DNA of 64,000 bases from an uncultured Ectothiorhodospiraceae bacterium (GTDB taxonomy: Bacteria > Bacteroidota > Ignavibacteria > SZUA-365 > GCA-2699105), in the NCBI GenBank assembly GCA_964408855.1, contig CAYPBB010000003.1, forward strand, positions 45,892 to 109,891, read 5' to 3'. The notes below the pieces were generated by a model. That model ran no database searches. It worked only from the letters and a program-made list of their open reading frames with translations, and was not told where the DNA came from. Below are positions 3,367-57,354 of this stretch, in pieces. Made by a program: the position numbers and the translations under genes. The number at the start of each line of letters is the position of its first letter. Positions within the stretch are counted from its first letter, which is position 1.

Positions 3367-6300
3367 GTGTTGAAGCTGTTGTTCAATGGAATTCTATCCT
3401 TAATCGTTCTCCTGGCCGCAGTGGAGACCGGGCATTGCCAGTCCGGTGCTGCTTCTGCAATACCGGGGTATTATTCGAGTCTCCGCTTTGTAAAACACTC
3501 CAACGGGCTGGATACGTCCGGATCGTGGATTGCGCCTCAGGCTAGAACGCTCCGATTCTACGCGAAATCCGACGGCATCGTAAAGATCACCGCGGAATGG
3601 TTCAATAACGCAGGCATCCCGCTGCAATCGATCGATCCGGCAAAAATTGCGTTGATTACGAAAGGAAGTGCCGTACCCTTCGCTCCCATCGGACTTGGAG
3701 ACGGTTCGTTCGATCAGGGCGACGCCATCTACTTCGTTGCACAAAAGAACTACGGAGACAGGGATTATCGCCGAATCGCCTCCGGCGACAACCCGTACTC
3801 TCAATACATGGACAGGTTTTCCGACTCGGCGGCCTATTGGGTATTGCTCGATATCTCGGGTACGCCATCCGCCCCTCTTCTCTCCCTGAACGCACCGGCC
3901 CTTCCGGACACCGTCTCGTGGTACCGCGAGCTGATCCACCATGAACCCGAGATTTCGCTGGAATTTCTCGGGGTGAATACCGACCGCCTTAACTATTCTG
4001 AATGGACAAGCGAAGATACTTGGATTGCCGGATTCATCTCGCCCGGACAGAACCGCCAGTTCCAGTTCGAGTTTCCGGGATATGTGCCGATGGATTCGGT
4101 GCGCTTGTGGTTAAGAGGAGCCGGGTATCAGGGCGATACCAAAACATGGCTGAATCACCGGTTTCAACTGACTCTGGACGGCGCATTCGCCGATTCGCTT
4201 TCATTCAATATGAGCGAACAGGTGCTTCTGTACGGAGCGATCGCTTCGCCGTTGCAGGTAACCGGTCAGCATACCATCAACGTGTTTTCAGAGCGTATTC
4301 AGAATGGATTCAGCAGAGCGGCAATCGACTGGCTGGATATCGAATACCCCAAGGCGCTTTCTGCGACGAATAATGCCCTCGCGTTCGCCAATCTGCCTCC
4401 CGGGCAATCGGTCAGGATGATTGCCGCATCGGGTTTTACGGATACGAATTTGGTGGTTTTCCGCACAAGCGAAACCTCGGTATATCAAATTCAGCCATCG
4501 TTTGTGAGAAGCGGAAATACATGGAAAGTCGTCATCGCCGATACCACGCGTTCCACGAATACCTATTTCATGTCTGTAAGAAACGCCGTTCCCACTGCAT
4601 CTGCTGCGGAGGAGATTCAACTCAGGAATCTACGCGCTTCTATTCCATCTTCACGGTATCTCATTATTACAGCGAAGCGGTTCGAATCTCAGGCGCAGTC
4701 GTATGCGGGATTCATTCAGTCTGCGTACGGTACGGCGGCAGAATTTGTTGTTGTTGAGGATATCTACGATTCCTACAGCTACGGCAACTTTTATCCGGAC
4801 GCAATCCGGCTGTTTTGTTTCGATTACCTGCGGCAATTTTCTGGCTCCGAATTGCCGTATATCCTGATAGCCGGCGATGCAAACGGCGACTACAAAAACA
4901 CAAACGGAACGTACCGCGAAAACATCGTTCCCGGCTACGGCTACCCGGTCAGCGATTTCCTTCTGACAGCGTTCGATTCTCTTGGTATCGAACAACGCGC
5001 ATATATCGGAAGACTCCCCATCCGCAACGCCGAGTCGTTCGATGGTTACCGCCTACGGCACGAACAATACCTGCAACTCCCGTACAACGAATGGAACAAA
5101 ACGGTAGTGCAGTTCTCGGGCGGCGAAAGTTCGGAAAACGAGGCGCAACTCGCGTTTTACCGCAATATCAACAATGCGATTGCAGCGGAATCCGTCGTGC
5201 CGCCTCCATTCGGAGGAGAAACGGTCCACATCTATAAAACGGCGATACCGCAGTCGGATTTTGGACCGTACTCGCAACAGGAAGTCGTCTCGATACTCGA
5301 GAAAGGCGGCGTGGCGATATCCTATGTCGGTCATAGCGCGACGACGACATGGGATAATTCCATCAACGATCCCCTGTTTCTCGCTCCGGCTGGCTCGAAA
5401 CCGCCGCTGGTCACCGATTTCGGGTGTTCCTCCGGACGGTTCGCCGAACCGGGCATCGTTTCATTCTCCGAGAAATACATATCAACCGCCGATGCACCGG
5501 GCTTGTGCTATATCGGTAACAGCACGTTCGGATCGAGGACAACATCGCAACTCTTTCCTTCGCTGTTTTACCATGCTCTGCTTGCCGAGGGTATCGCGGC
5601 CATTGGCAATGCTCATGGAAAATCGAAACAGGAACTGATCGCCAGGATGGGTGTTTCGCTCGTAACTCGGAATGCCATCCAAATGAGCGCTCTCATCGGC
5701 GATCCCATGCTTTCGATCCGCATTCCATTCAAGCCCGATCCGGCTATCGGTGCAAACGACATCCAGCCGCTCACACCCTCTTTCACCGATGCGATGGATT
5801 CGCTGCGATTCTCCGCCGTTATCATGAATTATGGCTCCGTCCCCGCCGGTCCACTGACGATAACGATCCACAGCGAGATGCAACAAGGAAACGCCTTCGA
5901 CGATACGATATCGACGGCATTCCCACGGATGAGGGATTCCCTCCGGTTTGCCGTGCCTAACCGGTTCGGCGCAGGAGCGGGATCTCTTCAGATTCGCCTG
6001 GATCCGATGTTTGAATACGATGAACTGGACGAAACAAATAATACCGCCACGCTGGACTTTACCGTTCTGAATGCCGGCATCAGTCTGGCGAATACGTTAT
6101 TTCTCGGCCGGGGCGCCGATACCATTACCGTGCTTCACCCATCCACCGATCCCGGACCGGTACAGTCCATCATCGTCGAACGGTCCGGCAGTCCGTCGTT
6201 TACGAATCCGCAGATTCAGCGGTACCCGTATTCCCGTGCGGCTACATTCGCCGCACCGCTGTCGCATGGCGGTGGAAATGCAAAACAGTATTACAGGGCA

Positions 6301-8151
6301 ACGCTCGATCTGCCGGGAGCGGCATATTCCGAAATTCTGGAATACCACCCAGCGCTTCCCGCGAGGGCGTTCTACAGATTTGACTCGACGGATTGGTTGC
6401 GCGATTCGAGGCACAACATCATCCTGACTCCGCTCGGAGTTTCCACTCTTCCTCCAGAGCGACGCATCCGGTTGTATTCAGCGGGACCCTTCCAGGGAAG
6501 CTCGGCGAATATCTTCCTCGATGGCAGCGCGGTATTCCCTCCGCAGTCGGTACCCGGGTATTTCATCGCGGTATTCGGGAAGGACAGCGCCGATCTCCGG
6601 CAGTCCAAAAGCTTCGCGACCTCTGTATCGCCTCAGGAAGCCGATTCGATGCGGGCGTTTCTAACGAGGATTCCCGGCGACGAGATTGTAGCGATCGTAT
6701 GTTCCGGCGATCCTGCTGAAAATGCTCAAATATTTGGGCAAGACTTGTCGCAACTCGGAGCGAATCCCCCAGACAGTCTTCCGCAGCAAGGATCGTATGC
6801 GTTTCTCCGAGTTCCGGGTCAGTTTATTCGCGAAGTACGTAAACAGCCCAATGAAGGGGCCGCTGTGATCGATACGGCACTCAGTACTCTGACGCCCGAG
6901 GGCAGCATCGTTCATGAACGGATTGGACCCGCAGGGACATGGAAAACCCTCGAATACGGCATATCCGGCAATGCCGGTCAATGCTATACACTCATAACCG
7001 GTATCAGAAGGGACGGTTCGAGAGCGCCGCTGATGCAGCAGGCATTATTGGCCGCTATCGATATCGGTATGATTCAGGCAGCGGAATACCCATACCTCGA
7101 AATCGAGACGAAGCTTCGAAACGGAGACGGTATGCCACCCGTTATCCGCTCGATGGCGGTCGATTTCAGGTTTTCCGCGGAACTGGTTCTCAATTATCAG
7201 ACCGCCGGTCTCGTAAAGGACACAGTATTTGCGGGCAGCGATGTAGAGCTTGCGCTGAGCGTCCTGAATGCCGGCGAAACGGGCAGTTCTCCGTCGGAGA
7301 TAGAATGCTCGATTCCGGGCAGAAATGAACTCAGACGGATCGCCATGCCCGCGATTCCACCGCGCGGCTGGTTCGATACTACCTTGACCTTTGCTGCAGG
7401 CGCTATATCCGGACAGGATGTGCTACGCGTGGCTGTCGATCCGGATGGCCTGATCCAGGAGCAGTATACGTCAAATAATGCGTACGCGCTTCCTTTCATT
7501 GTAACCGGCGATACCGCTGTTCCTGTAATGGAGTACTATATCGACGGTCAGGTTCCTCTTGACGGCGATTATATCGCATCCCAACCATCCATTTCCCTGT
7601 ACCTCTCGCCAACACCCAACCAGCAGATTCTCGAGCCTGAATCGTTCATATTGACAATCGACGGAGACAGAATAACCGTTCCTTCCCACGGCGCATCGTT
7701 CGTGCCTTCGTCGCAGACGAAACCTGCGGAGTACACGTTCAGGGCATCCCTTTCGGAGGGCAGCCATGAATTCCGCATCAACGGCGTCACAAAAACCGGT
7801 GTGCGCGCGTTTACCGAAGATGTTCTGCTTCATCTCACCGTTTCCGCAAGCAGCCGTATCCTCGACGCATATACAGTGCCAAATCCCGCAAGCGGAGAAA
7901 CGTCGTTCACATTCGTACTCACCGGCGGCTCCGTGCCCGAATCGATGGAATGCAAGATATACGCGATTTCAGGAAGACATATCCGCACAATCGAACTCCC
8001 CTCTTCCCAGCTTCGCATCGGGCAAAACGTCGTCCTGTGGGATTGCCGGGACTCCGACGGCGATATACTCGCAAATGGCACGTATTTTTACAAGCTCAAC
8101 GTCCCAGGCACAAGCGCATCCGCAACCGGTAAAATCGCAATATTGCGGTAG
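3367..8151 (+). CDS. secreted C25 (gingipain-like) cysteine peptidase family protein with T9SS C-terminal sorting domain
   Basis: A 1594-aa ORF with a GTG start and an N-terminal signal peptide (LSLIVLLAAVETGHCQSG). It carries C25 catalytic-dyad contexts (SYVGHSATTTWDNS with His; VTDFGCSSGRFAEP with Cys) and a C25-like propeptide/catalytic region (YLIITAKRFESQAQSYAGFIQSAYG...). The C-terminal ~90 aa (...ANGTYFYKLNVPGTSASATGKIAILR) look like a T9SS type-A C-terminal domain. Confidence 0.75.
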   Translation: MLKLLFNGILSLIVLLAAVETGHCQSGAASAIPGYYSSLRFVKHSNGLDTSGSWIAPQARTLRFYAKSDGIVKITAEWFNNAGIPLQSIDPAKIALITKGSAVPFAPIGLGDGSFDQGDAIYFVAQKNYGDRDYRRIASGDNPYSQYMDRFSDSAAYWVLLDISGTPSAPLLSLNAPALPDTVSWYRELIHHEPEISLEFLGVNTDRLNYSEWTSEDTWIAGFISPGQNRQFQFEFPGYVPMDSVRLWLRGAGYQGDTKTWLNHRFQLTLDGAFADSLSFNMSEQVLLYGAIASPLQVTGQHTINVFSERIQNGFSRAAIDWLDIEYPKALSATNNALAFANLPPGQSVRMIAASGFTDTNLVVFRTSETSVYQIQPSFVRSGNTWKVVIADTTRSTNTYFMSVRNAVPTASAAEEIQLRNLRASIPSSRYLIITAKRFESQAQSYAGFIQSAYGTAAEFVVVEDIYDSYSYGNFYPDAIRLFCFDYLRQFSGSELPYILIAGDANGDYKNTNGTYRENIVPGYGYPVSDFLLTAFDSLGIEQRAYIGRLPIRNAESFDGYRLRHEQYLQLPYNEWNKTVVQFSGGESSENEAQLAFYRNINNAIAAESVVPPPFGGETVHIYKTAIPQSDFGPYSQQEVVSILEKGGVAISYVGHSATTTWDNSINDPLFLAPAGSKPPLVTDFGCSSGRFAEPGIVSFSEKYISTADAPGLCYIGNSTFGSRTTSQLFPSLFYHALLAEGIAAIGNAHGKSKQELIARMGVSLVTRNAIQMSALIGDPMLSIRIPFKPDPAIGANDIQPLTPSFTDAMDSLRFSAVIMNYGSVPAGPLTITIHSEMQQGNAFDDTISTAFPRMRDSLRFAVPNRFGAGAGSLQIRLDPMFEYDELDETNNTATLDFTVLNAGISLANTLFLGRGADTITVLHPSTDPGPVQSIIVERSGSPSFTNPQIQRYPYSRAATFAAPLSHGGGNAKQYYRATLDLPGAAYSEILEYHPALPARAFYRFDSTDWLRDSRHNIILTPLGVSTLPPERRIRLYSAGPFQGSSANIFLDGSAVFPPQSVPGYFIAVFGKDSADLRQSKSFATSVSPQEADSMRAFLTRIPGDEIVAIVCSGDPAENAQIFGQDLSQLGANPPDSLPQQGSYAFLRVPGQFIREVRKQPNEGAAVIDTALSTLTPEGSIVHERIGPAGTWKTLEYGISGNAGQCYTLITGIRRDGSRAPLMQQALLAAIDIGMIQAAEYPYLEIETKLRNGDGMPPVIRSMAVDFRFSAELVLNYQTAGLVKDTVFAGSDVELALSVLNAGETGSSPSEIECSIPGRNELRRIAMPAIPPRGWFDTTLTFAAGAISGQDVLRVAVDPDGLIQEQYTSNNAYALPFIVTGDTAVPVMEYYIDGQVPLDGDYIASQPSISLYLSPTPNQQILEPESFILTIDGDRITVPSHGASFVPSSQTKPAEYTFRASLSEGSHEFRINGVTKTGVRAFTEDVLLHLTVSASSRILDAYTVPNPASGETSFTFVLTGGSVPESMECKIYAISGRHIRTIELPSSQLRIGQNVVLWDCRDSDGDILANGTYFYKLNVPGTSASATGKIAILR

Positions 8152-8670
8152 CCTGCGTACCTGGCTGTCAATTTCGGCTTACAACGTGTGAAAAATCTGC
8201 TTCGAACGATTATTTCCAACGATTCTTCCGCAACAATGCGTTGCAGATTATCGCGGAATATTCGTCTGAGCCAATAAACACAAGGCGCACAACTGCAATT
8301 TTACATTTACGCTCTAGAAACATTAAATTGCTGCTATTCAGTAACAGCTAGTTTACACTGTCAAATTCTGTGCACCTAACTACCGGCAAACTGGTATTGC
8401 GGCATCGAAATGCATAATTGCGGCGTGTCTAAATTCTTGAAATTCAGCGCAATTACGCAGAAAATATGGCGCAATTCGGCAAATCGCCGAATGCCAATCT
8501 GCTCGGTTGCGATTGCAAGAGTTACTGCCGAAAGTGAAAAATTTTCTAAGTAACTCCAGTAGAAAACACAACTTGTATTTGAATAGAATTGCTGTAATTG
8601 GTATAATTACCATGCAATTACGGAAGTCGTCTCGAACAGAAAGTGAGGTGAAAGCGGTTCAGATGCAGTT

Positions 8671-8685
8671 TGGCACGTCCATTGT
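8671..8685 (+). promoter_or_regulatory. candidate sigma-54 (-24/-12) promoter upstream of the pilus locus
   Basis: TGGCACgtccaTTGT at 8671-8685 matches TGGCAC-N5-TTGC except for a T at the last position. It lies about 80 nt upstream of the ATG at 8767. A sigma-54-dependent activator gene is present at 14855..16222. Confidence 0.3.
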
Positions 8686-8766
8686 AATATAACTGGGTGT
8701 GAAGATTGTGAACATTTGAATAGATCAACCATCAGAACCCTTTTCACCAATCAAAGGATTTCTCTC

Positions 8767-9315
8767 ATGAAAAAACTCATCCTCACCGCGCTTCTCTTTG
8801 TTGTAGCAGCCACTATGAGCTACGCACAGTTGGGTACCGGCGTTGACGCAACGTTCACCGCCACGGCAACCGTGCTTTCAACCCTTTCCGTCACGAATAC
8901 CAACGACCTCGAATTCGATGACGTCATTCAAGGCGACAACAAAACCGTCGGTGCGAATACAACAACCGGTAACGTAACTACCACATACGGAACCGGCCAG
9001 CTCGCAGACTTTGCCATTACCGGCACCGGCAGCAAAGAAGTCGGCGCATACCTGACGACCACCAATTTCCTCAGCGATGGTACCAACACGTTGACGATGG
9101 AAGACTGGGTAGGCTATGCAAATGCAACCAACTCCCTCTCCGGCGCGACAACGCAGGCCGGTCCGACCTCTTGGGCAAACCATCTTACCGTCGTTCTGAG
9201 CGCAGGCGGCAACGGCTACATGTGGCTGGGCGCAACCGCGAAACCGACGAGCTCGCAGGCTCCGGGTTCCTACACGGTTGACAACACCTTCACATTCTAC
9301 TACACCGGCAACTAA
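8767..9315 (+). CDS. DUF4402/SCPU (spore-coat-protein-U)-like secreted pilin-type subunit
   Basis: The ORF is 8716..9315. The likely start is the ATG at 8767 (MKKLILTALLFVVAATMSYAQ, a signal peptide), with an aaagga RBS upstream. The mature part is about 160 aa, Thr/Gly/Asn-rich with predicted beta-strands, as is typical of archaic chaperone-usher (Csu/SCPU-type) subunits. A chaperone-like gene follows immediately. Confidence 0.55.
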   Translation: MKKLILTALLFVVAATMSYAQLGTGVDATFTATATVLSTLSVTNTNDLEFDDVIQGDNKTVGANTTTGNVTTTYGTGQLADFAITGTGSKEVGAYLTTTNFLSDGTNTLTMEDWVGYANATNSLSGATTQAGPTSWANHLTVVLSAGGNGYMWLGATAKPTSSQAPGSYTVDNTFTFYYTGN

Positions 9316-22327: not shown

Positions 22328-23334
22328 TAGCACCCGAACGCAGGCGTATGTATTGGTTCATTGCAGCTGCGGTCGTCGTTGCGGCTGCGGTTCAGTTCGC
22401 CGGACCGTATTTCGCCGGCAACGACGATTCAAACTACGATCCCAAACCGAAGGTTTCGAAAGGCGATATCCGGCGGGTTGTACGGATTCCCATTTCATCG
22501 GTCGCTGAAGACGAAGAGAAAAGTGCCGGATTCTGGAGCGAGATGAACAACCTTGGAGCGAACGCAGTAATGCTTGATATTCCGTTGCATTACCGCGATG
22601 CAAACCCGGCATACATCGAGTACAACCGGTTCCAATCCGGTACGATCGACCGGGCTGTTCGAGAGATTCATGCCGCAGGTATGGAAGCGATCCTCGCTCC
22701 CTGCCTCACCGGTGATGACGATGCAATGGCTGAACGCAATGCTCGCGAAGAAGCGTTTGCGATGTACTCCGAGTGGTTGACCGACCATGCCGGCATGTCG
22801 GCGGACGGGCTGACGATCGATCTCAGCGGATTGTTCGCTTCCGTCTCTGCGTCGCAGGTTCAGTCGGCAATGATGAGTGTCTACGAATCATATCAGGGGA
22901 AGGTGTATCTGTGTATAGCGCCTTCGAAGACGGAGCTTGTACGATTGTTTGCCGCCACTGCGGGAGGTTTTATCCTCGACCTTTCCAATGGTACACCCCT
23001 GCCGCAGACGATGACCGGTGCGCTTGATTCTGCGGGCGATGTGAAAGCGATGATCTTGTTCCATCGGCAACGTACGCACATCCCGGATGTGTTTGCTCCG
23101 TATGTCGCGCAATCCAACAAACCGCAAAAAACGGATCTGTCTCCGGCGCTGTCAACATTGGAGGGTGTGGCATCAAACAACTGGTTTATGGGAATGATTC
23201 TACAAGCCCCGGAGTACGGAACTCCGTCGCAACAACGCTACCTCGAGGAGGTCGGGACGGCGTTCAGGGAGTTGAAGGAGCGCTCGATCAGGCGGGCGTT
23301 CGACCGAATGTCTGCCCCGTCAAGTCTGCGATGA
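22324..23334 (+). CDS. hypothetical membrane-anchored protein (possible TIM-barrel/glycosidase-like)
   Basis: 336 aa. The ATGA start overlaps the mfd stop, so translation is probably coupled. It has an N-terminal TM (YWFIAAAVVVAAAVQF). I found no recognisable catalytic motif. Confidence 0.5.
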   Translation: MIAPERRRMYWFIAAAVVVAAAVQFAGPYFAGNDDSNYDPKPKVSKGDIRRVVRIPISSVAEDEEKSAGFWSEMNNLGANAVMLDIPLHYRDANPAYIEYNRFQSGTIDRAVREIHAAGMEAILAPCLTGDDDAMAERNAREEAFAMYSEWLTDHAGMSADGLTIDLSGLFASVSASQVQSAMMSVYESYQGKVYLCIAPSKTELVRLFAATAGGFILDLSNGTPLPQTMTGALDSAGDVKAMILFHRQRTHIPDVFAPYVAQSNKPQKTDLSPALSTLEGVASNNWFMGMILQAPEYGTPSQQRYLEEVGTAFRELKERSIRRAFDRMSAPSSLR

Positions 23335-24045
23335 AAAATCGCTCATGGCGAGCTTGCGGAGGAGCGGCGCGGGGCGGTACCTATCGTCGCCGAATTCCGT
23401 CTGGAGGATCTGTAACAGCCGCAGGATACGGCTATACCCGATTTTCTTCCCCCATGCCAACGGTCCTTCCGGATAATTGACGCCGAGCTTCATCGCGGTA
23501 TCGATATCGCTTTCGCCGGCAACTCCCTGCTGCAACGCATACACCGCCTCGTTGATGATGGTTGCGATAACGCGCGGAAATACCAACCCCGGATAATCAT
23601 CCACAACCTCGATGCTCTTTCCTGACGCAGCAAACAAATCAGCCACGGGTTTCAGCAGCGCCCCTTCGCTATTGAACGGCAGCGTCAATTCCACGATGGA
23701 AGCTTCAAGCATGGACGGAAGATACGCCATCCCGACAAGGCGGTCCGACTGCTCGACATATTGAGCCAACGCGGTGGCTGTCGTACAGACGGTATTGGTG
23801 AGAAGCGGCACTTCGGGCTTTGTCAATGCCGCAAATGTGTTCAGCGTCTGGCTCTTCGTATGCGCGTTTTCCAATGCCAGATCGATAACGAAATCCGCAG
23901 CCGGAGAAAGGTAATCGGCATATTTCAACGCAGGCTTGGCAAGCTCGGCGTCGTTCGGCGCGGTTACCGCATAAATGGTGTGCGCCGAAAGAAACGGGAT
24001 CCATTCGTTGATAAACGAGGTCGGTCCGGAGATAAGGATATTCAT
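23320..24045 (-). CDS. 3-hydroxyacyl-CoA dehydrogenase family protein, degenerate NAD-binding site
   Basis: 241 aa, with a 3HCDH-like C-terminal dimerisation domain (...PGLVFPRVIATIINEAVYALQQGVAGESDIDTAMKLGVNYPEGPLAWGKKIGYSRIL...). The N-terminal Rossmann GxGxxG is replaced by ISGPTSF. It lies directly upstream of a canonical Hbd. Confidence 0.6.
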   Translation of the reverse strand: MNILISGPTSFINEWIPFLSAHTIYAVTAPNDAELAKPALKYADYLSPAADFVIDLALENAHTKSQTLNTFAALTKPEVPLLTNTVCTTATALAQYVEQSDRLVGMAYLPSMLEASIVELTLPFNSEGALLKPVADLFAASGKSIEVVDDYPGLVFPRVIATIINEAVYALQQGVAGESDIDTAMKLGVNYPEGPLAWGKKIGYSRILRLLQILQTEFGDDRYRPAPLLRKLAMSDFSSQT

Positions 24046-24054
24046 GGAAGGTAC

Positions 24055-24933
24055 TTATGATTTCGTTGAATAATCGTAGAAGCCTTTGCCTGTCTTCCTG
24101 CCCAGCAATCCGGCGTCGACAAGCGCTTTTTGAATGTGCGACGGCCGGAAACGCGGCTCGCCGTGGTAGCTTTCGAACAACGAGCGCGTCACCTCGTAGT
24201 TGATATCGTTGCCGATCAGGTCCATCAGCGCGAACGGACCCATCTTGAAACCGTGTCCGGTCACGATCCGGTCGATTGTTTCAATGTCGGAGACCTGTTC
24301 TTCGAGTATCCTGAGCGACTCGGAATAAAACGACCGCGCAACGCGGTTGACGATGAATCCGGGAGAGTCTTTCATCCGCGCCGGTACTTTGCCGAGATCG
24401 GAAACAAAGCCGCACAGCGAATCCATGACTTCGGAAGACGTAAACCGCCCCTGCACTATTTCGACGAGTTTCATGATATGCGCAGGATTAAAGAAATGCA
24501 ATCCGGCAACCCGTTCCGGATTCCGTACCTCCGATGCGATGGTGGTGATGGATATCGAAGAGGTATTGCTGGTGAGAATGGCATCGGGCCAGCAAATGGC
24601 TTCGAAAGACGCGAACAGTTTTTTCTTTATCTCGATATCCTCGGGAGCCGCTTCTATCACGATGTCCGCATCGGCGAACGCGCCCAGGTCGGCGGTGGTA
24701 TGAATTCTCGCGAATTGCGCTTCGGCTTCCTGGAGCGTGATCTTCCCTTTATTGACGCTTTTTTCAAGCTGCTCGCGTATCGTCTTCGCTCCGATGTACA
24801 CGATCTCGCTTGAAGTATCATAGAGTAGCACGTTGCGGCAACTCGCCGCTACGGCAATGGCGATTCCTCTGCCCATCGTACCCGAACCGGCGATGCCCAC
24901 CGCCGGAAAGTTCTTTTCGCATTCTTCGGACAT
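24055..24933 (-). CDS. hbd: 3-hydroxybutyryl-CoA dehydrogenase
   Basis: The ORF extends to 24993, but the likely start is the ATG at 24933 ([25 protein letters not shown]..., a GxGxxG Rossmann motif), 4 nt after the IcmF stop. The 3HCDH N- and C-domains are conserved (...PGFIVNRV...[15 protein letters not shown]...). Confidence 0.85.
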
Positions 24934-24934
24934 T

Positions 24935-27900
24935 CTACATACTCCTTCTGTACTGACCGCCGACAAGATATAACACGGAAGAGATCTGCCCAAGCGACGC
25001 CGATTTCACGGCTTCCAGCAACTCGTCGAACATATTGCCCCGGTCGCGCGCGGTATCCGCCAATTTTCTCAGCGCCTCATCCGCACGGGCGGTATTGCGC
25101 TTCTGAAACGCGCGCAGGTTATCCAACTGCTGATCCTTCTCGGCTGTCGTTGAACGGATAAGCTCGGTCGGTTGCGCCGTTGCGCTGCCCGCCGAGGCGG
25201 GCCGGAGGAACATGTTCACCCCGACTATCGGCAGTTCGCCCGAAAACTTTTTGTGCTCGTACAACATCGACTCTTCCTGAATTTTACCGCGCTGGTACAT
25301 CGTTTCCATCGCACCCGGCACTCCGCCCCTGTCCGATATCCGCCGGAATTCTGCCAGCACCGCTTCCTCGACCAGTTCGGTCAATTCTTCAATAATAAAC
25401 GCACCTTGCAAAGGATTTTCGTTTTTTGCAAGTCCCAGCTCCCGGTTGATGATCAGTTGTATGGCAAGCGCCCTGCGGACGCTCTCTTCCGTCGGCGTGG
25501 TAATCGCTTCGTCGTACGCATTTGTGTGGAGCGAATTGCAGTTGTCGTAGATCGCATACAGAGCCTGGAGCGTGGTTCTGATGTCGTTGAAATCGATTTC
25601 CATTGCGTGAAGGCTTCTGCCGCTGGTCTGAATATGGTACTTCAGTTTCTGCGACCGGGCATTCGCACCGTACAGATGTTTCATCGCCGTCGCCCAGATT
25701 CTGCGCGCCACGCGTCCAATGACGGCGTACTCCGCATCGATACCGTTCGAGAAGAAATACGAGAGATTCGGCGCGAAATCGTCGATCTGCATTCCCCGCG
25801 AAAGATAATATTCCACATACGTGAATCCGTTCGCAAGCGTGAACGCTAGCTGCGTGATGGGATTCGCCCCGGCTTCGGCAATATGATAGCCCGAGATCGA
25901 GACGGAATAGTAATTCCGCACATTCCTGCGGATGAACGTTTCCTGTATATCGCCCATCATTTTAAGAGCGAATTCCGTCGAGAAGATGCATGTATTCTGC
26001 GCCTGATCTTCCTTGAGGATATCCGCCTGCACTGTGCCGCGCACCACGGAAACGGTTTCCTCGCTGATTCGATGGTATTCTCCGGAAGAAAGCAGTCCCC
26101 GCTCGACGAAGAAATCACCGGAAACACCGAGCGTACCCAACCCGAAGTACCGGTGTACTCTGGCTCCTGCCTCGAATTGCGCCGGGTTGTCCAATTCCGC
26201 GAGAACCTCGCTCATTTCTCCGGCGCCTTCATACGCCGGTCTCGGCATTTGCAGCGAATTGTAATACTCGTCTATTGCGCGCTGCGCTGCAGCGAATTTG
26301 CCCTGCTGCACGAGATGGCGCTCAACCTGCTGATCGATCGCGGTGTTCATGAACATCGCAAGTATCATCGGCGCGGGACCGTTGATGGTCATCGATACCG
26401 AGGTCGCCGGTTTACAGAGATCGAATCCGCAGTACAGTTTCTTCATATCATCGAGCGTACATATGGATACGCCCGAATTACCGACCTTCCCATAGATATC
26501 CGGACGTTCGCCTGGGTCTTCTCCGTAGAGCGTCACGGAATCGAACGCCGTCGAGAGCCGAACGGCGGGCATTCCTTCGGATACATAGTGGAAACGGCGG
26601 TTCGTCCGCTCCGGTGTTCCCTCGCCCGCGAACATGCGCGTCGGATCTTCTTCCTTGCGCTTGAACGGAAACACCCCTGCGGTATACGGAAAGGTTCCGG
26701 GCACATTTTCAAGCAGAATCCATTTCAGAATGTCCCCCCTGTCGTTGTATCGCGGTAATGCCACCTTCGGGATTTTGGTCCCGCTGAGCGATTCGGTGTA
26801 CAACTCGGTCACCAGCTCCGTATTCCGTACGCGCGTAACGAGTTTATCCTTGCGGTACGCCGATTTCGCTTCTTCCCATTTTTCGAGCAGGTCCCTGTTT
26901 TCGGCGGCAACGAGCGACTTGAAGTGTTCTATTTGCAGATCGATGGCTTCGAGCAATTCCGGATTGATCGTCCGGCTTCCGTATTGCACAACGCCGCCTT
27001 CACCTGAGATAGTCACTTCCCTCCGCGAAGCAGCTTCGACAAGCGCTTCGCGCGAAGCTTCGAGTTGCCGCCATTTGCGCGCATACTCCGCCTGCTGATC
27101 GACCCACTGCTTATAATTTGAGACCGTATCTGCAATATCGGAAAGATACCGCGACCGTTCTGCCGGGATGAGAGCGGATTTGTTGGGCATCTGCCGGGTT
27201 TTCCCGAGTTCTGTCGCCCATGCGCCCGGTTGCCGCTCCTCCAGCCTCCGGGACAATGCATAAAACAAATGGTTCGTACCGGGATCGTTGAACTGGCTCG
27301 CGATTGTCGGATAAACGGGCAGTGCGTCGTCGGCGGCGTTCCAGAGGTTGCGGTTGCGCCTGAATTGCTTCCGCACATCCCTGAGCGCGTCCTCCCCTCC
27401 GCGTTTTTCGAATTTATTGAGAACGACGATATCCGCCAGATCGAGCATGTCGATCTTCTCGAGTTGTGTCGGAGCGCCGTATTCAGGCGTCATGACATAG
27501 AGGGAAATATCGACAAGATCGACGATTTCACTGTCCGATTGTCCGATTCCGGCAGTTTCTACCAGAATAAGGTTATAACCGGCGAGTTTGCAGAGGTCGA
27601 TGGCGCGGTGCAGCGCGGCGGAGGTGGCGGTATTCGCAGCCCTCGTTGCGAAGGACCGCATAAAAACGCGCTTGCTGCCGGACGGATCGGCTGTGGCGAC
27701 GGCATTCATCCGTATTCTGTCTCCAAGCAACGCTCCGCCTGTTCTACGTCTGGAGGGATCGACGGATAGGACCGCGTACGTCTTCGCAGGATACTCGTTC
27801 AACAGCCGTCTGATCAATTCGTCGGTTAAAGACGACTTCCCTGCACCGCCTGTTCCTGTGATGCCGACTACTGGTACGTCGGGGATTGCCGGTGCGGGCA

Positions 27901-28483
27901 CATGAAATGCGCTATCCGACTCTGCGATGGTGAGAATATGCGATAGCGTCTGGACATCGTCCTTGAGTTCGCCGTTCAATTGCTGAATCGTCTCATCCCT
28001 GATAATGAGTTTACCATCCTGGAACTTCACTTGCGCAAATTCGGAAACATCGTAATCGCACGCCTCCAGCACGACATTGATCATGCCCTGGAGGCCGAGG
28101 GACCTGCCGTCTTCGGGCGAAAACACGCGGTCGATACCGTACGCATGCAGTTCCTCAATTTCGGGAGGCACGATAACGCCCCCGCCGCCCGCAAAAATCC
28201 TGATATGTTCCGCTCCCCGTTTCATGAGAAGATCTTTCATGAACTTGAGGAATTCGACATGTCCGCCCTGATAGGAAGAAACGGCAATACCCTGCACGTC
28301 TTCCTGAATCGCCGCGTCGACAATCTCAGCGACAGACCGGTTATGTCCGAGATGAATGATTTCCGCGCCGCTCGCCTGGAGAATGCGCCGCATAATGTTG
28401 ATACTTGCATCGTGTCCGTCGAAAAGCGAAGCTGCGGTAACGAGACGGATTTTATGTTTTGGTGCGTACGGTAATGCGTCCAT
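24935..28483 (-). CDS. icmF: fused isobutyryl-CoA mutase (IcmF-type: B12-binding domain + MeaB-like G-protein + mutase catalytic domain)
   Basis: 1182 aa. The N-terminal B12-binding domain ([25 protein letters not shown]) is followed by a MeaB/ArgK P-loop GTPase ([20 protein letters not shown]; NKFE) and a C-terminal methylmalonyl-CoA-mutase-like substrate-binding barrel. Confidence 0.8.
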
Positions 28484-28576
28484 AGTGCGTTCGAGGGTAC
28501 CTTAATTCAGTGGGATGAATACGAATCTCATACCAGACACAACAGAAACTCCCCGCGCGGAGTTCGCTCGAACTCG

Positions 28577-51861: not shown

Positions 51862-53436
51862 ATGTCCCGCGCTTCCGTTACTGGAATTGTTGCGCTGTGT
51901 TTATTCTGCGCACCCTATCTTGTTGCCCAACAGCAACCCGTCGCCATAACCGTGGTCTGTGGATCGAAGGCCGCAACACCGCAAGCACATACTCATATCG
52001 CTGGAGAGCCGATAACCGTTCATCTCACCGCCCGCGACGGGAACGGCGATGTGATCCGCGATTGGGATCAAACAGGATCGGCTGCTACAATCACGCTTTA
52101 CAATTCGGATGCGAACACCGACACCAGTACCAGAAGCTGGAACGAAGATCCGGATGGCTACACCTGGGCCATGTTCTTCTATAACGGTCAACCGTTGCCC
52201 CACTCCTCGCCATACGGATGGACTCTCCCTCCGTCAGTCTTTACAGATGGAACAACCGAGTTGGAATTTGTGCATACAAAGACCGGCACAGGGATATCTT
52301 ATGAAATTACTCCTCCTCAATCGCCGCTCAGTCAGAAATCCGATGAGATGACCTTCGTACCTGCACAGACGTCTAGTTTCCTCGTCCAGTTGACGAACGC
52401 AGTGCCGGGTAAGACCGCCGTATTTCACATGCGCAAATATGAGATAACCGTCGTGCCTCGCGATAGGTATATGAATGTCACCGACGAGGTGATCCTGACG
52501 AAATTCAGCGCGCGGTTTCCCGGCGAGTTCCTGAATTCGCAGCCCGGGTACTCGGGATTGTTCGGCGGAGCGGTGTATTTGCAGGGCGCGACGAATTACT
52601 TCCTTGCTTCCACCACAAAGCGCGAACTTGGCGCCGACCAACTTCAATGGATCATGGCATACTCCGAAGCCGATCCGGATATCAACGGGAAAAGCCCCGA
52701 ATATGAAGTGCTTACCCATGCACCATTGTCTTTTCGGTTATTCAACCCGCCTGATAAATCATGGCTCCTTCTCCAAAGTCACACAACTCCGCAAGTATTT
52801 GATTGGGAACGAAGCGACGATGCTTACTCAGGGATCACAGTATCGAATACTACCGGCGAAATCGCATCCGATGTTGTTCGCTATACAATCCATTTCGTGG
52901 ATAGTCTCAGCCTGACACGGGAAGTAACAATTGATTCCGACGATCTTGGTTCAAAGTATAAATGGACGACAACCCATGGACAGCTTGCCGGTATCGTGCA
53001 GACGCAGGGAGGGGACCCGTTTGAACATAACATGATCTGGTTTGTCGAGGCGACGGACGGTTTTTACATAACAAGAAATGTCGATCCGAACCCATCGGTA
53101 CCTCAAATCGGATTTAGATTAAAGATATCGCCTGCGATTCCTCATCTTGTGGAATCGCTAAGAGGAGCAGCTTCCTCCTTCCTCCTCCACCAGAATTACC
53201 CGAACCCCTTCAACCCATCGACGACGATTCGGTTTGAGATTATCGAGCGCGGGCATGTAACTCTGCGCGTGTACAATCTGCTGGGAAACCAGGTGGCGGA
53301 ACTAGCGAACGAGACACTCGATCCGGGTGTGTACAGCGCGGAATTCAATGCTTCGGGATTGGCGTCGGGGGTGTATACGTACACGCTGCACATCGGGGAC
53401 AGGTTATTAAGCAAGCAAATGATTATTGAGAAGTAA
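51862..53436 (+). CDS. T9SS C-terminal-domain cargo protein, paralog family (long form)
   Basis: Signal peptide (VALCLFCAPYLVAQ). N-domain (LTARDGNGDVIRDWDQTG...NTDTSTRSWNEDPDGYTWA), middle domain (RKYEITVVPRDRYMNV...WTTTHG...WFVEATDG) and a type-A T9SS C-terminal domain (HQNYPNPFNPSTTIRFEIIERGHVTLRVYNLLGNQVAEL...GVYTYTL). Confidence 0.8.
   Translation: MSRASVTGIVALCLFCAPYLVAQQQPVAITVVCGSKAATPQAHTHIAGEPITVHLTARDGNGDVIRDWDQTGSAATITLYNSDANTDTSTRSWNEDPDGYTWAMFFYNGQPLPHSSPYGWTLPPSVFTDGTTELEFVHTKTGTGISYEITPPQSPLSQKSDEMTFVPAQTSSFLVQLTNAVPGKTAVFHMRKYEITVVPRDRYMNVTDEVILTKFSARFPGEFLNSQPGYSGLFGGAVYLQGATNYFLASTTKRELGADQLQWIMAYSEADPDINGKSPEYEVLTHAPLSFRLFNPPDKSWLLLQSHTTPQVFDWERSDDAYSGITVSNTTGEIASDVVRYTIHFVDSLSLTREVTIDSDDLGSKYKWTTTHGQLAGIVQTQGGDPFEHNMIWFVEATDGFYITRNVDPNPSVPQIGFRLKISPAIPHLVESLRGAASSFLLHQNYPNPFNPSTTIRFEIIERGHVTLRVYNLLGNQVAELANETLDPGVYSAEFNASGLASGVYTYTLHIGDRLLSKQMIIEK
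53174..53436 (+). repeat. CTD-encoding near-identical DNA repeat, copy 1
   Basis: tcctccttcctcctccaccagaattacccgaaccccttcaacccatcgacgacgattcggtttgag... This segment is shared by the four consecutive genes at >85-90% nucleotide identity by eye. Confidence 0.6.
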
Positions 53437-53437
53437 T

Positions 53438-54625
53438 ATGCGAATTGCAACACTTCTATTCGCGGTTCTCTCAATACTCAGCGTTTCGTCATGTATTGGC
53501 AGAGAGTGTTATTCTTTCTCCGATATAGAATATTTCGCATCTCCTCCTGATTCGCTGGATGAACTGCAAATCGAAATCACTTCCGTCGATTCAATGCGGC
53601 TTGCGGTGTTTCATCAGCGAATATATGAGATTGTTGTTACGCCATACGACAGGTATATGAATATTATCGACGAGCCGGTTGAGGTAACACTCTCTGCACG
53701 TTTTCAGAATGAATTCAGATTCGACGAACCTGGGTGCACGGATATTTTTTCATTGCCGCAAACGCTTCATGGAGAAACAGCATTTTATGTTATATCGACG
53801 GTCGATCGACAGCTCGGAGAAAACGAGCCACAATTGCTTACTGTAAACTCCGTATTAAAGCCACATGTCATGGGTTTCTCGAATTATTACGAAGTAAGAA
53901 GACATCCGCCGTCAAGCTTTATGCTTCTGAATCCGGCCAACAATACATTATTACTTTTACAATCCGCTACCACATCACAATCGTTTGAATGGCAACCCAG
54001 CATCGATCCGGTGCGATACAGTAAAATCTCGAGATATTCGAATGCGTTCCTGTTCGATTCGATCAGATACACAATCTCATTTACCGATAGCGCATCGCTC
54101 GCGCATACTGTGCGCATGCCTTCGGATCAACGAGGCATATCGCCGAAGTTTTCAACCACGCACGGCGAACTTTCGGACATCCTCGATCATATATTCGGGC
54201 GAACCTGGCTTACCGCCACTACCATTTGGTTTATCGAGGCAACCGATGGTATAACCACCACCAGCAACACTGTTTCGGACACAATCCAACAATACCCCGG
54301 ATTCTTCCTGCGATTCATACTTGGTGCTACCCCGCACGTGGAGCAATTGACGAGTCGAGTATCCTCCTTCCTCCTCCACCAGAATTACCCAAACCCCTTC
54401 AACCCATCGACGACGATTCGGTTTGAGATTATCGAGCGCGGGCATGTGACTCTGCGCGTGTACGATCTGCTCGGAAATCAGGTAGCAGAACTAGCGAACG
54501 AGACACTCGATCCGGGTGTGTATAGTACGGAGTTCAATGCTTCAGGATTAGCATCGGGGGTGTACACATATATACTGCAAACTGGGACATCAACTCTCAC
54601 CAAACGCATGATTGTGGAGAAGTAA
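53438..54625 (+). CDS. T9SS C-terminal-domain cargo protein, paralog family (short form)
   Basis: The ATG lies 2 nt after the previous stop. Signal peptide (MRIATLLFAVLSILSVSSC). It is homologous to the middle domain of the long forms (YEIVVTPYDRYMNI...SARFQNEFRFDEPGCT...WFIEATDG) and has a near-identical T9SS C-terminal domain. Confidence 0.8.
   Translation: MRIATLLFAVLSILSVSSCIGRECYSFSDIEYFASPPDSLDELQIEITSVDSMRLAVFHQRIYEIVVTPYDRYMNIIDEPVEVTLSARFQNEFRFDEPGCTDIFSLPQTLHGETAFYVISTVDRQLGENEPQLLTVNSVLKPHVMGFSNYYEVRRHPPSSFMLLNPANNTLLLLQSATTSQSFEWQPSIDPVRYSKISRYSNAFLFDSIRYTISFTDSASLAHTVRMPSDQRGISPKFSTTHGELSDILDHIFGRTWLTATTIWFIEATDGITTTSNTVSDTIQQYPGFFLRFILGATPHVEQLTSRVSSFLLHQNYPNPFNPSTTIRFEIIERGHVTLRVYDLLGNQVAELANETLDPGVYSTEFNASGLASGVYTYILQTGTSTLTKRMIVEK
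54363..54625 (+). repeat. CTD-encoding near-identical DNA repeat, copy 2
   Basis: Same ~260-bp segment as copy 1. Long identical runs include ccatcgacgacgattcggtttgagattatcgagcgcgggcatgt and gaactagcgaacgagacactcgatccgggtgtgta. Confidence 0.6.
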
Positions 54626-54626
54626 G

Positions 54627-56147
54627 ATGAATACATTTATACATATCGCCTGCATAGCAATGCTGATTCCGTGCATGGCGTTAGCGCAAGTGTCGCAATA
54701 CACCGCCGGAGACAGCGTTTCCATTGTACTTACCGCGAAGGACGGTTCGGGCAATATCATCACCGACTGGGATCAGACCGGTACAAACGCTATCCTCACG
54801 CTGCACAATTCCACCGCAAATACCGATACCAGCAATCGAAGCTGGAACGCTGATCCTATTGGCTATTCCTGGGCCATGGTGTATCATGATGGGCAGCCGT
54901 TGACGCAGATTTCCGATTACCAGTGGAATATGCCGCCTGCATTGTTTACGGATGGGACAGCAGAACTGACATTCGTTCACACAAAATCCACCGAAGAAGC
55001 AGCTTTTACGATGTCGATTGACGATACCAGCGCTTCATTCAAGATAGCACCAAACAGCATTAATTTTGTCGCCGGCCCTATAACGAATTTTCTTGTGCAT
55101 CTCGTTTCGTCGATTCCTGACAGCGAGGCGGTGTACAATTTTCGTAAATATGAAATCTTTGTCTGTCCGCGAGATAGATATCTGAATGTAACGAATGAGC
55201 AGATCCGGACGAGGTTTACAGCTCGTATTCCCGGCGAGTTTGCAAATTCGTTGCCGAGTTTTTCCGATGTATTTAGCGGAGACGTATTTATTCGAGGTAG
55301 TACGAATTTTTTCCTCGCATCAACAAAAGAACGCATTAAAGGCGTGGATACTCTCCAGTGGCTCAGCGTAACCGCTGGCGATGACTCAACAGTCACAGGT
55401 CGAACCTCAGAATATGAAATACGCCCGCATGCACCATCTGACTTTAATCTTCTTCTCCCAGTCGATGGAACAATCCTCACGTACAATACATGGACGACCC
55501 CGTACGAGTTTTCATGGGAGGAGGCGCCCGATCCATATACGAATATTCTAATTTCGATAGTATGCGCCGAGCTAGGAAACGACGTCGTCGACTATACCAT
55601 CCATATCTTGGATAGCGCCAGTCTCACGAAACGTACAATAAGACCGTCTGACAATAATAAGCGGTTGAATAAGTGGACAACCACCCATGGTGAGCTCCGG
55701 AGTATCGTGGAATCGCAGCCAGACACTGTTTCCTACCATGCGATGATCTGGTACGTCGAAGCTACCGACGGTCTATATGTTACCCAGAGCAATGATCCTC
55801 ATCCCGGTATCCCGCAAATCGGGAATCGGCTATCAGTATATATTCCCAACCCTGATAATGTTGAGCGAATTGCCCAGGCAGCGACCTCCTTCCTCCTCCA
55901 CCAGAACTACCCGAACCCCTTCAATCCATCGACGACGATTCGGTTTGAGATCGTCGAGCGCGGGCATGTGACCTTACGTGTGTACGATCTTCTCGGCAAT
56001 CAGGTGGCTGAACTAGCGAACGAGACACTCGATCCGGGCGCGTATAGCACGGAATTCAATGCCGTGGGATTGGCGTCGGGGGTGTACACATATATACTGC
56101 AAACTAGGATATCAACTCTCACCAAACGCATGATTGTGGAGAAATAA
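54627..56147 (+). CDS. T9SS C-terminal-domain cargo protein, paralog family (long form)
   Basis: The ATG lies 2 nt after the previous stop. Signal peptide (IACIAMLIPCMALAQ). It has the same N-domain (LTAKDGSGNIITDWDQTG...NTDTSNRSWNADPIGYSWA), middle domain and T9SS C-terminal domain. Confidence 0.8.
   Translation: MNTFIHIACIAMLIPCMALAQVSQYTAGDSVSIVLTAKDGSGNIITDWDQTGTNAILTLHNSTANTDTSNRSWNADPIGYSWAMVYHDGQPLTQISDYQWNMPPALFTDGTAELTFVHTKSTEEAAFTMSIDDTSASFKIAPNSINFVAGPITNFLVHLVSSIPDSEAVYNFRKYEIFVCPRDRYLNVTNEQIRTRFTARIPGEFANSLPSFSDVFSGDVFIRGSTNFFLASTKERIKGVDTLQWLSVTAGDDSTVTGRTSEYEIRPHAPSDFNLLLPVDGTILTYNTWTTPYEFSWEEAPDPYTNILISIVCAELGNDVVDYTIHILDSASLTKRTIRPSDNNKRLNKWTTTHGELRSIVESQPDTVSYHAMIWYVEATDGLYVTQSNDPHPGIPQIGNRLSVYIPNPDNVERIAQAATSFLLHQNYPNPFNPSTTIRFEIVERGHVTLRVYDLLGNQVAELANETLDPGAYSTEFNAVGLASGVYTYILQTRISTLTKRMIVEK
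55886..56147 (+). repeat. CTD-encoding near-identical DNA repeat, copy 3
   Basis: Same segment as copies 1 and 2 (tccttcctcctccaccagaactacccgaaccccttcaatccatcgacgacgattcggtttgagatcgtcgagcgcgggcatgtgac...). Confidence 0.6.
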
Positions 56148-56148
56148 T

Positions 56149-57354
56149 ATGAAAAAGATCGTAGCACCTTTTATGGCGTTTATTATGATACTTGGATATG
56201 CACATGTACAGTCGGGTATTTCGCAAGGTATTTTACACTCAACCGATCCTGTAATTGCGTCTGAACATACGCCTTACTCCGATACACTGGACTATATATC
56301 TTTCGAAGTTCGATCTGTGGATTCGACAAGTCTTGCTGTGTATGCCCAGCGGAAGTTCGAGATGATCGTTACGCCGCGTGACAAATATTGGAATATCATT
56401 ACGCGACCGGTACATGTCACATTTTCCGCACGTTTCCCCGATGAATTCAGATTTGATGAGCCGCGATGCACGAATATCTTTCAGGGCGTACAAACTCTAA
56501 ACGGTGAGACGGCATTCTATCTTGTTCCAACGAAAGACCGCCAACTGGGAGAAGCAGTGCAGCAGCTAATGTGGGTAACATCGGTCGACCAGCCGGAATT
56601 AGTAACGTATTCCGATTATATCGAAGTGCGCCGCCATGCACCGAAGCCGTTTAAGCTGCTGACGCCTACAGATGGAGTATTGATAGTCCTGCAATCGTAT
56701 AGTACACCGACAATATTTACATGGGAAGAGTCGCATGATCCTGTCGAGTACATAAAAACATCCAGGTACACCAATGATTTCCACTATGATTCGGTTAGAT
56801 ATACGGTATCTTTTCTTGATAGCGCAACATTGACTCACAAAGTAAGTATGTTGTCTGATGCGTTGGGCAGAAAACCAAAGTTGTCTTCTTCACATGGATC
56901 GGTTCATACAGCAATGGGAGAGATCTCTGCCTGCAACAATCCGTGGTGTTCATCCTTCTGGTTTGTCGAGGCGACCGACGGTCTATATATTACTCACAGC
57001 AATGCACCTTATCCCGGTATCCCGCAAATCGGGAATCGGCTTTCGACGTATTACCCATACGTAAACGTTGAAAAACTTGCTCTATCATCCTCCTCCTTCC
57101 TCCTCCACCAGAACTACCCGAACCCCTTCAACCCATCGACGACGATACGGTTCGAGATTGTCGAGCGAGGGCATGTAACTCTGCGCGTGTACAATCTGCT
57201 GGGAAACCAGGTGGCGGAACTAGCGAACGAGACACTCGATCCGGGTGTGTACAGCGCGGAATTCAATGCTTCGGGATTGGCGTCGGGGGTGTATACATAT
57301 ATACTGCAAACTGGATATGCTATCCAATCTAAGCAAATGATTTATAACAAATAG
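56149..57354 (+). CDS. T9SS C-terminal-domain cargo protein, paralog family (short form)
   Basis: Signal peptide (MKKIVAPFMAFIMILGYAHVQS). It is homologous to the second gene of the array (FEMIVTPRDKYWNI...SARFPDEFRFDEPRCT...WFVEATDG) and has the T9SS C-terminal domain. Confidence 0.8.
   Translation: MKKIVAPFMAFIMILGYAHVQSGISQGILHSTDPVIASEHTPYSDTLDYISFEVRSVDSTSLAVYAQRKFEMIVTPRDKYWNIITRPVHVTFSARFPDEFRFDEPRCTNIFQGVQTLNGETAFYLVPTKDRQLGEAVQQLMWVTSVDQPELVTYSDYIEVRRHAPKPFKLLTPTDGVLIVLQSYSTPTIFTWEESHDPVEYIKTSRYTNDFHYDSVRYTVSFLDSATLTHKVSMLSDALGRKPKLSSSHGSVHTAMGEISACNNPWCSSFWFVEATDGLYITHSNAPYPGIPQIGNRLSTYYPYVNVEKLALSSSSFLLHQNYPNPFNPSTTIRFEIVERGHVTLRVYNLLGNQVAELANETLDPGVYSAEFNASGLASGVYTYILQTGYAIQSKQMIYNK
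57089..57354 (+). repeat. CTD-encoding near-identical DNA repeat, copy 4
   Basis: Same segment as copies 1-3 (tcctcctccttcctcctccaccagaactacccgaaccccttcaacccatcgacgacgatacggttcgagattgtcgagcgagggcatgtaactctgcgcgtgtacaatctgctgggaaaccaggtggcggaactagcgaacgagacactcgatcc...). Confidence 0.6.

Follow-up and report, generated by a model that had tools for sequence, protein, structure and literature searches.

A probable sigma-54 promoter with phased upstream sites precedes a chaperone-usher-like pilus operon in an uncultured FCB-group bacterium

The locus and its orthologues

We analyzed a 64-kb stretch of DNA (hereafter, the window) from an uncultured bacterium of the FCB (Fibrobacterota, Chlorobiota, and Bacteroidota) group and focused on the intergenic region between a gene for a PorU2-like C25 peptidase, the last base of which is 8151, and a gene for a secreted DUF4402 protein, the putative subunit of a pilus-like fibre. 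The region contains a candidate sigma-54 promoter that is conserved among orthologous loci, with a pair of phased sequence elements upstream of it, and a two-component system with an NtrC-family regulator is encoded beyond the far end of the operon (Table 1). An earlier note on this DNA had described the region as an unusually long, AT-rich leader of 564 bp. It is indeed AT-rich, with a GC content of 41% versus 52.7% for the whole window, but its length is 615 bp given that the downstream gene starts at ATG 8767 (MKKLILTALLF...). The orthologues keep this start but not the phase of the open frame that begins at TTG 8716. "Leader" is also a misnomer for most of these 615 bp, which are predicted to be mainly upstream regulatory DNA with a transcribed leader of only approximately 70 nt.

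Nine close relatives of the subunit were found, at 59% to 100% identity, and the comparison was based on 8 distinct upstream regions, namely, those of the window and of loci L003, L004, L006, L010, L011, L012, and L014 (the region of L005 is the same as that of L004, and the region of L015 the same as that of L014). The orthologous intergenic regions are 570 to 620 bp long, and the mean column identity of the 8 regions is 49%; 6 of them were aligned with L-INS-i, and k-mer counts were used in addition. L004 is the only long orthologous contig, and its gene order is as in the window, including the convergent regulator and kinase genes. More distant relatives (L019, L020, and L022) were reached through the chaperone encoded by the second gene of the operon (33% to 44% identity). 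Metagenome scans with the protein alignment and with a promoter-plus-leader DNA pattern gave no match, and a genome scan yielded only 30%-identical DUF4402 loci (L007 to L009), which carry no sigma-54 site. The 256-aa (amino acid) gene call in L003 (4445-5215; protein P0002) is an artefact, with a 74-aa N-terminal extension through an open upstream frame; the true start of the L003 subunit is the conserved ATG at L003 4667.

The earlier note had allowed that the repeats in this region might be a degenerate fragment of a small open reading frame (ORF) or noncoding RNA. Such a reading, which takes the repeats as remnants of a small RNA or small protein encoded by the region, can point to ORFs of 77 aa (8380-8613, minus strand) and 61 aa (8507-8692, plus strand). 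None of the ORFs in 8152-8766 is conserved among the orthologues, there is no conserved translation, and the indels among the orthologous upstream regions are not multiples of 3. Rfam searches returned no family, either at the gathering threshold for the whole window or at E ≤ 1 for 8050-8850, and no conserved leader RNA fold was found, with no pairs in RNAalifold and a single-sequence folding z-score of 0.12. The small-product explanation is thus already largely refuted, and we regard it as highly improbable.

Table 1. Coordinates of the features of the pilus-like locus in the window
Feature	Coordinates	Strand	Remarks
Intergenic regulatory region	8152-8766	+	From the PorU2-like sortase gene to the DUF4402 subunit gene
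Distal conserved block TGCAAT..CATTTACG..TAGAAA..AATTGC	8294-8334	+	Partly invariant in orthologues
Two direct ATTGCGGC repeats (ATTGCGGCatcgaaatgcataATTGCGGC)	8396-8424	+	21 bp apart; ATTGCGGC-N13-ATTGCGGC module
Two GCGCAATT copies	8447-8476	+	22 bp apart; orientation opposite to the ATTGCGGC pair; window-specific
Candidate enhancer site A TGCAAgagTTAC (TGCAAGAGTTAC)	8514-8525	+	-157 from the -24 box, approximately -183 from the predicted start
Candidate enhancer site B TGAAAaatTTTC (TGAAAAATTTTC)	8535-8546	+	21 bp after site A
Sigma-70-like match TTGAAT-17-TGgTATAAT	8579-8607	+	Overlaps the AATTGC-N21-GCAATT palindrome
Candidate sigma-54 -24/-12 element TGGCAC-gtcca-TTGT	8671-8685	+	Invariant core in 8 distinct orthologues
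Predicted transcription start	8697	+	24 nt after the second G of GG, from sigma-54 geometry
Leader motif ACCCTTTTCAC-n-AA	8737-8750	+	Identical in all orthologous loci
Shine-Dalgarno-like AAAGGA	8753-8758	+	8 nt before the ATG; AAGG core in all orthologues
DUF4402 secreted protein, putative pilus subunit	8767-9315	+	182 aa; Pfam DUF4402, 28.9 bits versus cutoff of 25.2
PapD-fold periplasmic pilus chaperone	9399-10271	+	290 aa; AlphaFold2 model, predicted local distance difference test (pLDDT) score of 89 (32-sequence alignment)
Large envelope protein, C-terminal OmpA domain	10306-13560	+	Approximately 1084 aa; possibly usher-like
Membrane protein, CHASE sensor domain only	13581-14612	+	CHASE between two transmembrane segments; no output domain
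GC-rich hairpin GGCTAACC-gatt-GGTTAGCC	14680-14703		A and T runs on flanks
tRNA-Gly	14704-14777	-	Directly after the hairpin
NtrC-family response regulator/sigma-54 activator	14855-16222	-	Response_reg (receiver), Sigma54_activat (AAA+), HTH_8
Histidine kinase	16234-17565	-	Two transmembrane segments, PAS, HisKA, HATPase; operon with the regulator

A conserved candidate -24/-12 promoter element

The promoter-like element TGGCACgtccaTTGT (TGGCACGTCCATTGT) at 8671-8685 matches 9 of the 10 letters of the consensus TGGCAC-N5-TTGCW, with TTGT for TTGC, and has the 10-nt spacing of the GG and GC doublets that is expected of sigma-54 promoters. A match of this quality is not significant alone, because the one-mismatch pattern occurs 6 times in the window versus 3.6 expected, and its weight comes from conservation. 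The other one-mismatch matches (7867, 15114, 28020, 43349, and 58906) are intragenic or wrong-facing and were rejected; no sigma-54-like site of the window other than that at 8671-8685 is well placed.

Phylogenetic footprinting showed that TTGGCAC-N5-TTG(T/C)A is unchanged in 8 of the 8 distinct sequences, in the midst of diverging flanks and around a 5-nt spacer that itself varies (gtcca, atgca, gggca, gcgca, gcaca, atcca, gtccc, and atctc), as would be expected of a sigma-54 promoter. Three of these sequences (L006, L011, and L014) have the canonical TTGC. The near-consensus sigma-54 promoter read by the earlier note, which had proposed looking for a conserved -24/-12 element in orthologous loci, is thus strongly supported, both by this conservation and by the identity of its core to that of Escherichia coli pspA (see below), and we consider it very likely, on sequence grounds, that the element is a sigma-54 promoter. 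Elements of the GG-N10-GC form stand at the same place in the distant loci, namely, TGGCATggtatTCGC in L019, TGGTATgatatTCGC in L020, and CGGCACaatggTTGC in L022 (in fuller form, GAACTGGCATGGTATTCGCT, GAATTGGTATGATATTCGCA, and CGGCACAATGGTTGC), compared with a background of 0.06 per kb per strand for this relaxed pattern. The elements of L019 and L020 form a conserved island in the pairwise alignment, and that of L022 sits 69 nt 5′ of the ATG. The geometry of the promoter predicts that transcription of the window operon would start at approximately position 8697, giving the leader of approximately 70 nt mentioned above.

Repeats and candidate enhancer sites upstream of the promoter

The GCAATT/AATTGC repeats that the earlier note had reported in both orientations are present where it placed them, with AATTGC at 8416 and 8587 and GCAATT at 8449, 8471, and 8614, and are joined by two further copies at 8295 and 8326. 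These 7 copies compare with 1.07 expected from dinucleotide shuffles, none of 2,000 of which reached 7, and the cluster is the only one of its kind in the 64 kb. When free choice of the hexamer is allowed for, 5.5% of the shuffles contain some hexamer in at least 7 copies, so that the enrichment alone is only marginal.

Comparison with the orthologues separates the repeats into shared and window-specific ones. In the distal block, GCAATT and AATTGC are inverted and 31 bp apart (inverted repeat I13), and none of the 4 full-length orthologues departs from the ATTGC at 8327-8331. The first repeat of the ATTGCGGC module (8396) is found in 4 of 5 orthologues and the second (8417) in 3 of 5; the module is absent from L004. 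A 30-bp ATTGCGGC...ATTGCGGCG module (window 8396-8425) is nearly identical in L003 (approximately 4159-4188), where it lies approximately 150 bp farther from the promoter and beyond the distal block, as though relocated. The GCGCAATT copies (8447 and 8469) are not conserved in L003, L004, L006, and L011, and the AATTGC-N21-GCAATT palindrome at 8587-8619 (the 8586-8622 region) is specific to the window. Among these repeats, only the 8396/8417 ATTGCGGC pair and the 8295/8326 block are shared with orthologues. The earlier note's suggestion of an enhancer, or upstream activating sequence (UAS), arrangement held up in kind, but not for the sites at 8447, 8469, and 8586-8622.

The best-conserved candidate enhancer is a pair of 12-mers at 8514-8546 that the earlier note had missed. 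The pattern TG[CA]A[AG]-N3-TT[TGA]C occurs exactly twice per region in all 6 aligned regions, including that of L004, and, counted from the T of TGGCAC, its two copies lie at -157/-158 and -136/-137 in 5 of the 6; in L011, they are found at -147/-125, 10 to 11 bp (one helical turn) closer. The two sites are 21 to 22 bp apart, that is, two helical turns, the spacing expected of UAS elements on the same face of the DNA, and their distance from the promoter is within the usual UAS range of approximately 80 to 200 bp or more. No other such pair exists in the 64-kb window. Similar elements are present in L019 (TGCAATTGTTTC and TGAAATAATTGC, at -125/-111), and the upstream blocks of L019 and L020 are nearly identical over 45 nt. 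The spacer between the candidate enhancer and the promoter is 60% to 67% AT.

A conserved leader motif

The most conserved noncoding stretch of the locus is ACCCTTTTCAC-n-AA, the conservation of which exceeds that of the coding sequence. The motif is unique in the window and lies 18 to 22 nt 5′ of the ATG, just before the AAAGGA, and L022 carries the similar CACCTTCACCCAAC at the same distance from its ATG. An RNA-binding or DNA-binding factor may recognize the motif. An inverted copy of it just 5′ of the -24 box (8647-8665 versus 8730-8748) was found only in the window and was dropped.

The candidate activator

As the earlier note had stated, an NtrC-type activator is encoded approximately 6 kb downstream: the protein encoded at 14855-16222 on the minus strand has both a Sigma54_activat domain and a GSFTGA loop and is NtrC1-like by sequence. 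Its matches to NCBIfam models are all below the cutoffs (AtoC, 364 versus a cutoff of 714). The periplasmic loop of the adjacent kinase is short (approximately 35 aa). The L004 orthologue of the regulator is syntenic and 90% identical, and its helix-turn-helix is identical to that of the window protein. If the adjacent regulator activates the operon in both organisms, the 12-mer pair or the distal block would be likelier sites for it than the ATTGCGGC module, because L004 lacks the module and has the identical helix-turn-helix. Enhancer sites served by a nearby activator are plausible.

The pilus-like operon

The genes downstream of the promoter appear to form a chaperone-usher-like pilus operon, with a DUF4402 subunit, a PapD-fold chaperone, an OmpA-domain protein, and a CHASE sensor. 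The DUF4402 protein has an N-terminal signal-like segment, and the label "pilus subunit" given to it in the earlier note is backed by the gene context but not by the protein's own model, which is poor (pLDDT 59) and gives only nonsignificant fold matches, to CfaB and archaeal pilins; a search of the PDB by sequence yielded no match for it. The model of the chaperone matched SafB, EcpB, Caf1M, CfaA, FimC, PapD, and CsuC in Foldseek (E-values of 4e-10 to 1e-7, probability of 1.00), so that the PapD-fold chaperone expected of a chaperone-usher operon is present. The 290-aa protein itself has no Pfam match, and some of its homologues carry PF00345 (at least one) or the source name PapD-like. The presence of a PapD-fold chaperone in a DUF4402 cluster supports DUF4402 as a pilus subunit.

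No Pfam Usher match, as expected for the outer-membrane usher of a chaperone-usher operon, was obtained. The protein encoded at 10306-13560 matched no usher family, and even at E ≤ 10 only OmpA and a weak CarboxypepD_reg match were recovered. Proteins of approximately 1030 to 1084 aa that end in a peptidoglycan-binding OmpA domain also occupy the "usher" position in L004, L019, and L020, and in L021, the same position is taken by a 992-aa protein with a weak LysM match instead of OmpA. The CHASE-only protein, encoded by the last gene of the operon, suggests a split sensor with possible feedback on the operon. In L019 (13417-15534) and L020 (10678-12603), a single-domain receiver is followed by one long protein in which CHASE and PAS domains are joined. 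The hairpin at 14680-14703 is likely the operon terminator.

The PorU2-like gene (window 3367-8151) encodes C25 peptidase, ILEI, CARDB, and FlgD_ig domains and resembles a type IX secretion sortase. It is linked to the pilus-like cluster in two arrangements, upstream on the same strand in the window and downstream and convergent in L019 (15547-18906).

Other features of the window

A further sigma-54-like element, TGGTATgagatTCGTA, lies at 28520-28535 on the minus strand, approximately 37 nt upstream of a fused MeaB/methylmalonyl-CoA mutase gene (24935-28483, minus strand), and resembles the L020 element TGGTATgatatTCGCA. At 23320-24045 and 24055-24993 (minus strand), two 3-hydroxyacyl-CoA dehydrogenase genes lie side by side; the shorter one has only a partial N-terminal domain match and may be a truncated paralogue. 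Each of four consecutive genes at 51862-57354 has a type IX secretion sorting domain (Por_Secre_tail) at its end.

Proposed mechanism and alternative explanations

Taken together, the promoter, the enhancer sites, and the candidate activator probably constitute a single regulatory package. Sigma-54 RNA polymerase would form a closed complex on the -24/-12 element, and an AAA+ enhancer-binding protein would assemble on the 8514-8525/8535-8546 pair, possibly aided by the accessory elements at 8396-8424 and 8294-8334. The likeliest candidate for this activator is the response regulator at 14855-16222, which would be phosphorylated by the adjacent kinase, reach the polymerase through a loop of the AT-rich spacer, and use ATP for promoter opening. 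Transcription would then proceed from approximately 8697, and the leader of approximately 70 nt would carry ACCCTTTTCAC immediately 5′ of the ribosome-binding site. The elements of this scheme that we infer from the sequence are the start site, the contacts between protein and DNA, the activator's identity, and the signal.

Several observations weigh against this scheme. The -12 element of the window is TTGT rather than TTGC, and none of the ORFs examined in the window proved to be rpoN. No E. coli-type integration host factor (IHF) site (WATCAANNNNTTR, at most 1 mismatch) was detected in the spacer of 5 of the 6 orthologues; such a site is often present between enhancer and promoter but is not required. 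Because the 12-mer pattern was derived from the very sequences that were then used to count it, the count is not an independent test, and the evidence lies instead in the constant, phased position of the pair despite a diverged spacer. No sigma-54-like site was found in four other DUF4402 loci (L007, L008, L009, and L021), and sigma-54 control is therefore a feature of one branch and not of all DUF4402 clusters. Furthermore, no sigma-54 activator gene is present in the 19 to 21 kb covered for each of L019, L020, and L022, which shows that adjacency of the regulator is not general. Lastly, the sigma-70-like site at 8579-8607 has 10 of 12 consensus matches and an extended -10.

This last site is the basis of a different explanation, which we consider unlikely: the main promoter would be of the sigma-70 type, with a leader of approximately 150 nt, the overlapping palindrome would be a repressor operator, and TGGCAC..TTGT would have a minor role or none. 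The region contains 5 sigma-70-like matches versus 1.3 expected, and a TATAAT-like box stands at a similar place in L004 and L006. Such matches are, however, frequent in AT-rich DNA. Only 3 of 6 orthologues have the box at a comparable position, and L003, L011, and L012 conserve neither the -35/-10 pair nor the palindrome, whereas the sigma-54 element is invariant in all 8. The sigma-70-like site may serve this organism as a second, activator-independent promoter or as a source of basal transcription, but it is not what is conserved at the locus.

Another explanation accepts the sigma-54 promoter as real and has the repeats and 12-mers bound by a repressor, a nucleoid protein, or a second regulator, with the activator encoded away from 14855-16222. 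The presence of sigma-54-like promoters in L019, L020, and L022, where no activator gene is nearby, is in its favor, as are the lack of any AATTGC or 12-mer motif upstream of the kinase-regulator operon and the absence of the ATTGCGGC module from L004 despite the identical helix-turn-helix. It has to contend with the synteny of regulator and kinase, kept in the only orthologous contig long enough (L004), and with the phased site pair approximately 160 to 180 bp upstream, which is the classic layout for activators of this kind. We judge it possible, if doubtful, and favor control by sigma-54 and an enhancer-binding protein acting from the 8514-8546 pair.

To our knowledge, almost nothing is known of how such surface-fibre genes are controlled in uncultured FCB-group bacteria. 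The present analysis provides a testable regulatory map for one such operon, which comprises a promoter, a predicted start, phased sites, accessory repeats, and a candidate two-component system. As a speculation that we hold to be rather unlikely as a whole, control by sigma-54 and an enhancer-binding protein might be an ancestral, built-in trait of an undescribed chaperone-usher-like fibre family in FCB-group bacteria with type IX secretion, with ACCCTTTTCAC adding post-transcriptional control as a second point of regulation and the CHASE protein feeding back on the kinase-regulator pair. This putative family would be defined by a DUF4402 subunit, a PapD-fold chaperone, an OmpA-ended outer-membrane protein of approximately 1,000 to 1,100 aa replacing the usher, an operon-encoded CHASE sensor, and a PorU2-like sortase next door.

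Comparison with known systems

The proposed arrangement resembles that of the classic activator-dependent sigma-54 promoters, which include pspA, glnAp2, atoDAEB, and, with PilR, pilA. The E. coli pspA promoter is sigma-54-dependent, and its -24/-12 core, TGGCAC-N5-TTGTA (read in MG1655), is letter for letter that of the window, which shows that a sigma-54 promoter can function with TTGT at -12. At pspA, the activator PspF has no receiver domain, and its upstream sites and the IHF site lie within approximately 130 bp; in the window, by contrast, the candidate activator is a two-component regulator, the sites are farther upstream, and the IHF consensus was not found.

In Pseudomonas, Myxococcus, and Geobacter, the PilS/PilR system controls the sigma-54 promoter of pilA through an NtrC-family regulator and tandem upstream sites. 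The window resembles it in combining an NtrC-family two-component gene with a sigma-54-type promoter directly before a fibre subunit gene, and differs in that the fibre is chaperone-usher-like rather than type IV, the regulator is not a PilR orthologue, and the site motif is different.

AtoS is the best family match of the kinase, and AtoC is among the top matches of the regulator. The verified AtoC sites, GCTATGCAGAAATTTGCACA and ...AAAATTGCGCA (PMC3118216), contain TGCA-N-TTGC(A/G)CA and AATTGCGC and resemble both site B (in L006, ATGCAAAATTTGCGCA) and the motif of the earlier note. In atoDAEB of E. coli, as in the window, the sites are more than 100 bp upstream, but the half-site spacing is one base shorter and the target genes are unrelated. 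That the regulator is an AtoC orthologue is ruled out by its 37% identity and differing recognition helix.

In the sigma-54 regulon of Flavobacterium psychrophilum (motif SM4), typical -24/-12 promoters drive genes for envelope, gliding-adhesin, and exported proteins (PMC9723704). This bacterium likewise belongs to the FCB group and has a type IX secretion system, but the genes are other ones, and no DUF4402 or chaperone-usher operon was reported among them (PMC9723704). Our literature search found no paper on DUF4402 and none combining sigma-54, an enhancer-binding protein, and chaperone-usher systems, and a broader search on RpoN and fimbriae returned nothing directly relevant by title or abstract. 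Compared with these systems, the mechanism proposed here is that of a textbook sigma-54 promoter with upstream activator sites, a theme already known in the FCB group; the less ordinary aspects of the locus are the operon itself and its leader motif.

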